Below, piece by piece: positions 3,160 to 3,236 of a stretch of 64,000 nucleotides of DNA. The position numbers and the translations under genes were made by a program. This stretch comes from an uncultured Candidatus Saccharibacteria bacterium (GTDB lineage: Bacteria > Patescibacteriota > Minisyncoccia > Phycocordibacterales > DATDWN01): contig CAZNUU010000002.1 in NCBI GenBank assembly GCA_964576615.1, positions 27,428 through 91,427 of the forward strand, in the 5' to 3' direction. The notes under the pieces were generated by a model. It was not told the DNA's origin, ran no database searches, and saw only the letters and a list, made by a program, of their open reading frames with translations. Position 1 is the first letter of the stretch; each line of letters begins with the position of its first letter.

Positions 3160-3236
3160 TTGAGAAAAGCCTTTCGCAGGAGCGAAGGCGACGAGAAGTT
3201 CGCTGGGCGAGCCCGCCTAGATAGATTGCTTTTCGA
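3160..3236. repeat. Intergenic structured repeat family A, copy 1 (~75 bp, GC-rich)
   Basis: aaaagcctttcgcaggagcgaaggcgacgagaagttcgctgggcgagcccgcctagatagattgctttt. Two further copies at 7536-7610 (reverse complement) and 35546-35620. Confidence 0.85.

Follow-up and report, generated by a model that had tools for sequence, protein, structure and literature searches.

A dispersed three-way-junction element at gene boundaries of Patescibacteria, tentatively read as an RNA module

A 64-kb stretch (64,000 nt) of contig CAZNUU010000002.1, which we call the window and by which we mean the whole stretch of DNA that was analyzed, carries three near-identical copies of a structured intergenic repeat, family A. 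The question that this locus raises is what such a repeat is and whether its structure is put to use in DNA or in RNA. A sequence-only reading of the window had described a unit of about 75 nt lying immediately 3' of trmD, rnr, and fba and antisense to each gene, and had likened it to a repetitive extragenic palindromic (REP) or terminator-associated element or to a small structured element or RNA. We find that the three copies belong to a large superfamily of structured dispersed elements, 115-155 nt in length and apparently uncatalogued, in the Patescibacteria, or candidate phyla radiation (CPR), a huge and mostly uncultured radiation of ultra-small groundwater bacteria with genomes of about 1 Mb. 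We tentatively interpret the repeat as an undescribed, structured, RNA-type dispersed element that sits at gene boundaries and acts there as an RNA module, a reading whose mechanism we infer and to which we assign a probability of roughly 45%.

All three copies are found where they had been placed, at 3160-3236 (+), 7536-7610 (-), and 35546-35620 (+). A 43-nt core pattern allowing at most three mismatches matches the window only at 3187-3229 (+), 7541-7583 (-), and 35573-35615 (+), and 100 shuffles put the expected number of matches at 0. The near-identity over some 75 nt stands, but 75 nt is the length of a palindrome core and not of the unit, since the real copies measure about 115-125 nt. 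In a repeat search of the window, 3137-3257 and 7513-7633 align over 121 nt with 88% identity, a family A covariance model places the full-length copies at 3143-3257 (+), 7513-7627 (-), and 35524-35643 (+), and terminal pairing lengthens them to approximately 3138-3261, 7509-7632, and 35519-35647. The outer arms are about 65-75% alike between copies, yet they are complementary within each copy, and even the terminal 9-mers, which differ among the three copies, are each matched on their own opposite arm (TTAAATATC/GATATTTAA, TAAGATTTC/GAAATCTTA, and TAGGATTCC/GGAATCCTA). The family A repeat is a long imperfect palindrome with the near-identical 75 nt at its center, and these cores have been homogenized within this genome, being 98-100% identical despite the diverged arms. 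The 5-nt insertion reported for copy 3 is genuine (TGAGA) and falls within P2, one of the three helices described below. The GC-rich stem of 7 bp is likewise present, but its loop and 3' arm, previously given as CTGGGCG-GGC-TCGCCCAG, are not as described; the hairpin is CTGGGCG-AGCC-CGCCCAG with a 4-nt loop, and the version in copy 1 has one G.T wobble (CTGGGCG-AGCC-CGCCTAG). Since each copy has flanks unrelated to those of the other two, the copies are not segmental duplications of one locus. The family A features are as follows.

3138..3261, + strand: family A copy 1, with P1 arms, three-way junction, minimal P2 (GGAGC-GAAG-GCGAC), and P3 with a G.U pair; 93.9 bits
3165..3236, + strand: homogenized core of copy 1, comprising P1c, J1/2 CCUUUCGCAGG, P2, CGAGAAGUUCG, P3, and AUAGAUUGC
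7509..7632, - strand: family A copy 2, between the convergent rnr and an smc-like C-terminal fragment; 89.0 bits
35519..35647, + strand: family A copy 3, with the TGAGA insertion in P2, in the spacer between the fba stop and the rplY promoter; 96.8 bits

Consensus folds were calculated with RNAalifold for three sets of relatives, and the same three-way junction emerged from each: 34 pairs, 23 of them with double changes, in a short class (37 sequences); 42 pairs, 28 with double changes, in a long class (57 sequences); and 33 pairs, 32 with double changes, in family B (19 sequences), which is taken up below. Helix P1, a long stem that closes the junction, begins with an outermost segment, P1a, whose length ranges from 4 bp to over 15 bp. 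Next come an internal loop that is conserved (5'-GUYGNA opposite NRAGNAAG-3') and a segment of about 10 bp, P1b, which is followed by a G.A or tandem G.A mismatch and then by P1c. Within P2, the segment P2a (CUUUCG/CGAGAAG) carries a 2-nt bulge, and P2b differs by class: the short class has 4 bp plus GACG, the long class an arm of about 45 nt with a G-UANU-C (GUANUC) loop, and the window a form reduced to 2 bp plus GAAG. P3 is a 7-bp helix with an ANYA-type loop (AGCA, AGCU, AGUA, or ACCA). The junction strands J2/3 and J3/1 read UUCG and AUAGAUU, respectively, and about 30 junction bases are almost invariant across the family.

Covariation in support of this fold is abundant. Among 106 distinct model-aligned sequences, 97.3% of the cells are paired, compared with 71.0% after shuffling and 30-48% with slid partners, percentages that are inflated by the fitting of the alignment (A5) to the model. 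The covariation score is 0.647 versus 0.172 for shuffled sequences and was reached by 0 of 500 shuffles, and compensation is strong, with double changes in 29 of the 34 pairs. Compensatory changes in several helices exceed both the shuffle and the slide controls. P3 alone occurs in 51 distinct versions, among them the fully compensated CTCCGCA/TGCGGAG, CTAGCCC/GGGCTAG, and CTGGCAC/GTGCCAG, and even the near-invariant P2a is compensated, U to G with A to C, in L041, L063, and L097 (L numbers are our handles for related genomes, loci, and contigs). Some wobbles are themselves invariant: a U.G pair in P2a is present in 105 of the 106 sequences, and a U.G and a G.U pair in the long P2 arm are present in 57 of 57. 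The earlier suggestion of a small structured element or RNA is therefore strongly supported by a fold that covaries across more than 100 relatives.

The fold has a strand. On the forward strand, G.T mismatches outnumber A.C mismatches by 14 to 2 in P3 (51 helices) and by 87 to 14 in P1b, where the excess holds in all ten columns. When the copies are divided by gene context, the corresponding numbers are 38 versus 4 where both neighbors are antisense and 30 versus 7 where both are sense. Because the G.T excess is equal in sense and antisense contexts, the fold is intrinsic to the element strand; it is a property of one strand of the element, independent of the strand that is transcribed with the neighbors. 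The forward strand of the three window copies also folds 8-12 kcal/mol more stably than the reverse strand.

Relatives occur well outside the window. Metagenomes were scanned with the degenerate pattern CGAGAAGTTCG-N16-20-AYAGATTGC, which leaves the hairpin free and fixes 20 junction bases, and at least 120 metagenome stretches match it, mostly from groundwater, with many from the Hainich wells, and including 0.1-µm filtrates. The invariance of the 20 fixed bases is partly by construction; the left block CCUUUCGCAGG lies outside the pattern, and about 110 of the matched stretches listed also contain the left block CCTTTCGCAGG, which is absent from it. An exact 20-mer scan of species-representative genomes returned 14 chance matches in GC-rich genomes and one true relative in a metagenome-assembled genome (L009), in which 34 of 34 nt of the right half are identical, the outer arms are wholly different and pair at 30 of 31 positions, and the left hairpin holds an insertion of about 40 nt. 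FBA homologues of 75-82% identity are labelled Patescibacteria group, Paceibacterota, Minisyncoccia, Zambryskibacteria, or Parcubacteria, and the host is a member of the Patescibacteria, a Paceibacteria-type CPR bacterium. Six syntenic 20.9-kb loci of relatives are unbiased for the element because they were chosen through FBA, and the family A model finds nine copies in these 125 kb; overall, an element sits in an intergenic spacer about once every 9-14 kb. Searches of viral contigs and of phage and plasmid records gave 0 matches, and a phage or plasmid origin was dropped on this ground. Rfam 15 at the gathering score identifies only four ordinary tRNAs in the whole window, which led us to set aside a tRNA-like or transfer-messenger RNA reading, and the element regions searched at E up to 10 gave only chance matches of snoRNA or miRNA type far below the gathering score. 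Our full-text searches of the literature yielded no account of such an element, and neither they nor Rfam 15 yielded one of other non-coding elements in Patescibacteria.

Families A and B are distantly homologous and of the same architecture, because each covariance model finds the other family. The family A model recovers three family B copies at full length, at 30384-30497 (+), 3261-3374 (-), and 62010-62125 (+), with E values of 2e-4 to 9e-3, and the family B model recovers the family A copies with E values of 1e-5 to 7e-7. The other superfamily members in the window are as follows.

3261..3375, - strand: family B copy, tail-to-tail against family A copy 1 and abutting the trmD stop; A model 27.7 bits, B model 94.5 bits
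30384..30497, + strand: family B copy in the rpmE/prfA spacer, with positional orthologues in four related genomes
62010..62125, + strand: family B copy, found by the covariance models and the repeat search
41261..41423, + strand: seventh superfamily member, B-like, between rpe and rpiB; B model 24.9 bits, E 0.007

In the seventh member, the 28-bp outer arms pair perfectly and P2 carries a long inserted arm; the core is similar to that of a copy in L138. Two of the family B copies, one of them at the old rpmE/prfA site, share an identical stretch of 36 nt. All seven window copies are intergenic, and at 7 elements per 64 kb, or about one per 9 kb, they make up about 1.3% of the sequence.

Orthologous sites give these copies a history. 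The gene order pfkB-fba-rplY-...-rpmE-prfA-rpsB-tsf is common to the relatives, with an rnr-type reductase, gap, rpiB, rpe, and tkt upstream. In the rpmE/prfA spacer, the family B copy is present in five of seven syntenic genomes (the window, L140, L141, L142, and L143) and absent from L138 and L139; it is antisense to both genes, its arms are site-specific and similar between genomes, and its P2 and P3 differ between genomes by compensated changes. The fba/rplY spacer holds an antisense family A copy in the window, a sense family B copy in L139, and, in both L138 and L140, B-like copies whose P2 holds insertions, L140 having a reversed remnant as well. In L141 (10916-11134) and L142 (10912-11124), the same spacer holds a conserved open reading frame (ORF) of 70-72 aa, in which no Pfam domain was found, followed by a plain GC hairpin and no structured element, and the spacer of a JGI contig measures just 40 nt. 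Elsewhere, the element is inverted between orthologous spacers with its arms still recognizable (L024/L128 versus L094/L127; L041/L108/L066 versus L025). Sites are thus gained, lost, flipped, and swapped between subtypes, and some copies persist across genomes with compensated stems.

With respect to the genes around it, the element shows little preference. For 109 elements with two neighbors on a crude ORF map, 30 are in co-directional sense, 32 in co-directional antisense, 33 in convergent, and 14 in divergent arrangements; the elements thus face either way at random with respect to genes, and divergent promoter spacers are avoided to some extent. Nearly all related copies are intergenic, and the gap to the neighboring ORFs is usually a few nucleotides. 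The 150 clusters of neighbor proteins match 224 Pfam families, none of them more than twice, and represent ordinary housekeeping genes. With random orientation and no recurrent class of neighbor gene, a specific gene association and a riboswitch or cis-regulatory leader were rejected. Flank composition returns to background within about 3 nt, apart from a left-hand A-run and a right-hand T-run, which pair with each other. Among about 100 relatives, the terminal palindrome runs 0-13 bp past the model without a common terminus, and no recurrent flanking direct repeat or dinucleotide indicative of a target-site duplication was found. The arms are the least conserved part of the element and the center is the most conserved.

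The gene map of the window confirms that all three family A copies are intergenic. A position immediately 3' of the named gene holds for copies 2 (rnr) and 3 (fba) but not for copy 1, which lies between trmD and an ABC ATPase gene and is separated from the trmD stop by a family B element. Each copy is indeed antisense to the gene in question, but this is a small-sample effect and not a consistent rule, given that orientation in the wider family is random; copy 2 is also sense to the convergent smc-like gene fragment at 7679-8056. The last paired bases of copies 2 and 3 overlap the stop codons of rnr (TAA) and fba (TAG). The spacer of copy 3 has the fba stop on one side and the promoter of rplY (L25/Ctc), TTGATT-N17-TATACT, on the other. 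This promoter, at 35485-35513 (-) of the window, is kept in relatives (L138 ~12040-12075, L139 ~11050-11085, L140 ~11220-11255, and L141/L142 ~11195-11215), and the distance from its end to the ATG, only about 8-10 nt, suggests mRNAs that are leaderless or nearly so. Similar extended -10 boxes (TGnTAAAAT, TGTTATAAT) follow directly after elements at other genes in L024, L028, and L094. The element marks gene boundaries beside promoters of this leaderless type.

What, then, is the fold for? We favor the reading as an RNA module at gene boundaries because the three invariant G.U wobbles, the tandem G.A motifs, the modular P2, and the conserved apical loops point to action at the RNA level. The fold would be used in a single-stranded form of the forward strand, most probably an RNA transcript, and would be recognized by a conserved factor, encoded either by the cell or by the element. 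RNase III would find a natural substrate in the long P1 rod, and the junction is a putative protein-binding or catalytic core. In this way the element could serve as an RNA module complete in itself, delimiting transcripts or processing them where genes lie tightly packed. Its cores may have been spread and homogenized between resident palindromic arms by recombination, gene conversion, or another copying route, and presumably not by cut-and-paste transposition.

Several observations weigh against this interpretation. No position-specific upstream signal for a promoter of the forward strand was found, and sigma-70-like scores are equal on both sides of the element. In about one-third of copies, including copies 1 and 3, the structured strand is antisense to both neighbors, and these copies would need antisense transcription to express the fold; the random orientation also argues against a strictly cis, sense-dependent role in mRNA. 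The tolerance of G.T and the covariation of the hairpins could equally reflect a folded intermediate of single-stranded DNA (ssDNA), and there is a weak replication-strand bias (63 versus 39, p ~0.02). Compensation in the long arms and flips in orientation may come in part from template switching or arm recombination at the DNA level, although neither the invariant junction nor the asymmetry of the wobbles can be explained in this way. The two limits given above, the fitted alignment and the partly constructed invariance of the junction bases, belong on the same side of the balance.

A bolder version holds that the superfamily is a new, Patescibacteria-specific class of functional RNA whose junction is predicted either to be catalytic, by self-cleavage or self-processing, or to bind a specific protein or ligand, and in which the RNA or a copy of it would spread and homogenize the cores among dozens of loci. 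We regard this version as a real but minor possibility. If it were true, the element would be a selfish or domesticated RNA module with a mobilization route not yet described in bacteria.

The alternative that survives best, although we consider it unlikely, is a non-autonomous element mobilized as ssDNA in the style of IS200/IS605 insertion sequences (IS) or of REP-associated tyrosine transposases (RAYT), with an HUH/Y1 transposase recognizing P2, P3, and the junction of the folded forward DNA strand. Such an element would account for a fold that is strand-specific whatever the direction of local transcription and for the absence of fixed termini and target-site duplications; it needs no promoter, and none was found; and it fits the high copy number and the gain, loss, and replacement at sites. 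IS200/IS605-derived elements carry subterminal one-strand hairpins, lack terminal inverted repeats and target-site duplications, and have a conserved 4-5-nt target 5' of the left end; no such conserved target was found 5' of the element. Its forward strand is biased toward the C-rich strand, but the bias is only weak, and replication-strand dependence was set aside for this reason. RAYT-like genes (Pfam Y1_Tnp; NCBIfam REP_Tyr_transpos below cutoff) are present at 4 of about 115 loci, namely L020 (2527-3210), L053 (9590-10057), L086, and L100 (4893-5612), but no matches to the element models are adjacent to them, and these genes carry hairpins of their own. In L086, inverted copies of a CATAGGAAACTCCTATG hairpin flank the gene at 5330-5360 and 6015-6040, in what looks like a separate REP-RAYT-like system. 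The 64-kb window contains no RAYT-like gene, and no linked TnpA or TnpB was found there or among the neighbor proteins. Finally, the long terminal palindrome, invariant wobbles, tandem G.A, and modular P2 are, to our knowledge, unlike known IS200/IS605 ends.

Each copy could instead be a gene of its own, from which a functional RNA, either a putative new class of self-cleaving ribozyme or a protein-binding small RNA (sRNA), is expressed independently. The three-way junction with its roughly 30 invariant bases, covarying stems, variable P2, and conserved apical loops is what would be expected of such an RNA, as are the retention of positional orthologues with compensated stems and a folding strand that is intrinsic to the element. 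We nevertheless judge this explanation to be quite unlikely, given that 60-100 copies or so per genome of about 1 Mb would outnumber the tRNA genes, that sites turn over rapidly and flip in orientation, that Rfam searches at E up to 10 match no model of a ribozyme or sRNA, and that there is no conserved promoter or terminator. A promoter-driven independent sRNA gene was rejected because there is no promoter at a fixed distance and no terminator. A promoter match that spans P3 (TTCGCT-N17-TAGATT) was judged coincidental, as one-third of copies have CAGATT and the match leaves the hairpin unexplained.

A boundary element that acts as DNA, whether a plain bidirectional terminator or a protein-binding palindrome resembling REP or bacterial interspersed mosaic elements (with gyrase, IHF, or a nucleoid protein as the partner), agrees with the position of the copies at gene ends, with the depletion of divergent (14 of 109) and enrichment of convergent (33) spacers, with an apparently orientation-independent function, and with a stem flanked by an A-run and a T-run. 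An intrinsic terminator consists of a GC-rich stem followed by a U-tract of about 6-8, however, and the U-runs of the element are only 3-4 nt long, the 3' flank across the family showing only about 3-4 enriched T. In a scan for the terminator consensus, copy 1 alone fits, through an internal hairpin on the minus strand, the strand of its gene, and copies 2 and 3 gave no match. The "terminator-associated" label is thus correct as to location at gene ends and fails as to the signal, of which there are short A/U runs and a single copy that meets the consensus. Moreover, a generic palindrome leaves the roughly 30 invariant junction bases, the invariant wobbles, and the asymmetry of G.T over A.C unexplained, and a cruciform or two-way terminator would penalize both kinds of mismatch. 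We therefore hold a DNA-level boundary element to be very unlikely.

A classical cut-and-paste miniature inverted-repeat transposable element (MITE), for example one of IS630/mariner type with TA duplication, is hinted at by the three window copies, which start TA(A/G)... and end ...(T/C)TA on 9-bp perfectly paired termini, and by size and intergenic multicopy distribution, but it is scarcely credible and was rejected on about 100 relatives, among which palindrome ends vary by 0-13 bp with no shared terminus or flanking dinucleotide, the termini are the least and the center the most conserved part, the opposite of an element whose terminal inverted repeats are bound by transposase, and no parent IS or recurring transposase was found among the 150 neighbor proteins.

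The element has practical consequences for annotation. Mechanical ORFs of 54-75 aa cross the window copies (3101-3328 (-), 7446-7610 (-), and 35518-35685 (-)), and gene callers are likely to annotate spurious small proteins at element copies. The only records found to contain the proteins of the window are short Logan contigs of two sequencing runs. Logan short-read contigs L001 (rnr; ends at 3562) and L144 (fba; ends at 1097) stop exactly 50 nt past the stop codon, inside the element, as expected because it is a high-copy repeat; the element fragments short-read assemblies of the host organism. The covariance models are ready for use in annotating CPR genomes.

Other repeats in the window are separate matters. 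The sequence-only reading had connected family A with GC-rich in-frame mini-elements, a relation that neither the family A nor the family B model detects. A GC-rich repeat of 43 nt, probably the mini-elements in question, occurs at 108-150 and 18009-18051 in inverted copies that are 88% complementary, and contain the hairpin ATCCAGC-TTCG-CTGGAT; each lies within a long ORF, one helicase-like (1-1518 (-)) and the other dnaE-like (15525-18773 (+)). A 62-nt GC-rich direct repeat, 84% identical, occurs at 8455-8516 and 11364-11425 with a CCAGGG...CCCTGG hairpin. One of its copies lies where the smc-like gene looks broken into a 749-aa ORF and fragments of 125 and 126 aa (with ORFs at 7679-8056, 8078-8458, and 8684-10933), which may be due to a frameshift or to insertion in frame. 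A direct repeat of 32 nt, with 91% identity, occurs at 58619-58650 and 58774-58805 (AATTTTT..CTGCGGAAACGAAGGGATTCGAA); its second copy overlaps a tRNA (58786-58872 (-)), and the first may be a remnant of a tRNA end, such as an integration scar.

Since the element family is widespread in groundwater lineages and has kept its fold through dozens of compensated stems, it represents either a class of functional RNA or a kind of mobile element, in both cases a new one. It opens to study the means by which an element built on a three-way junction, and lacking the hallmarks of transposons, can spread, flip, and be homogenized in a minimal genome.

The element lacks the hallmarks of MITEs, REP-RAYT systems, terminators, riboswitches, and promoter-driven sRNA genes, and its resemblances to known systems are partial. 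REP and REPIN sequences are short structured intergenic repeats at gene ends, with strand-specific ssDNA hairpins, long doublet hairpins, and tens to hundreds of copies. The element is like them in being a structured intergenic repeat at gene ends with a strand-specific fold and many copies. However, the label REP in its strict sense is not supported, as no family of REP-type hairpins flanking a RAYT gene was found and the RAYT-like genes carry different hairpins. In a REPIN, moreover, the arms, two inverted REPs, are conserved and the loop is free, whereas in the Patescibacteria element the arms vary and the center is conserved.

Enterobacterial repetitive intergenic consensus (ERIC) sequences, or intergenic repeat units (IRU), are imperfect palindromes of about 127 bp that are intergenic, occur in both orientations, and have a conserved center and variants with internal insertions; RNA folding has been proposed for them, and their mechanism of mobilization is unknown. 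The likeness, for which ERIC was compared by description, is architectural only and lies in a dispersed imperfect palindrome with size variants due to insertions. ERIC is a simple rod, has been reported with a TA target duplication, and resides in enterobacteria or vibrio, whereas the present element is a three-way junction with invariant bases, has no such duplication, and is hosted by the phylum Patescibacteria. Correia elements (NEMIS), RUP, Nezha, and bcr1 are 100-160 bp long and lie near genes; their co-transcribed hairpins are cut by RNase III, and they may carry outward promoters. The element resembles these in size and in its intergenic position close to genes, but Correia-type MITEs have fixed terminal inverted repeats of 20-30 bp and TA or other target duplications, both of which the Patescibacteria element lacks, and no parent IS was found for it. 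The Rickettsia palindromic elements (RPE), which have invaded a reduced, host-dependent genome, are known for insertion in frame into genes. These too are palindromic repeats, of many subfamilies, in the reduced genome of a host-dependent bacterium, but 7 of 7 window copies and nearly all relatives of the present element are intergenic.

The hammerhead and twister-sister ribozymes combine a three-way junction with invariant bases and covarying stems, and they too can be dispersed in many copies with no fixed gene context. The element shares with them a junction, invariant bases, covarying stems of variable length, and conserved loops, but its conserved bases fit no ribozyme consensus, and there is no Rfam match at E up to 10. 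In general kind the element is like the structured intergenic repeats of ERIC, REPIN, and Correia type, and it differs from them in four ways: without transposon hallmarks, it combines a junction core that is more conserved than its termini with at least three homologous subtypes and a host among the Patescibacteria.

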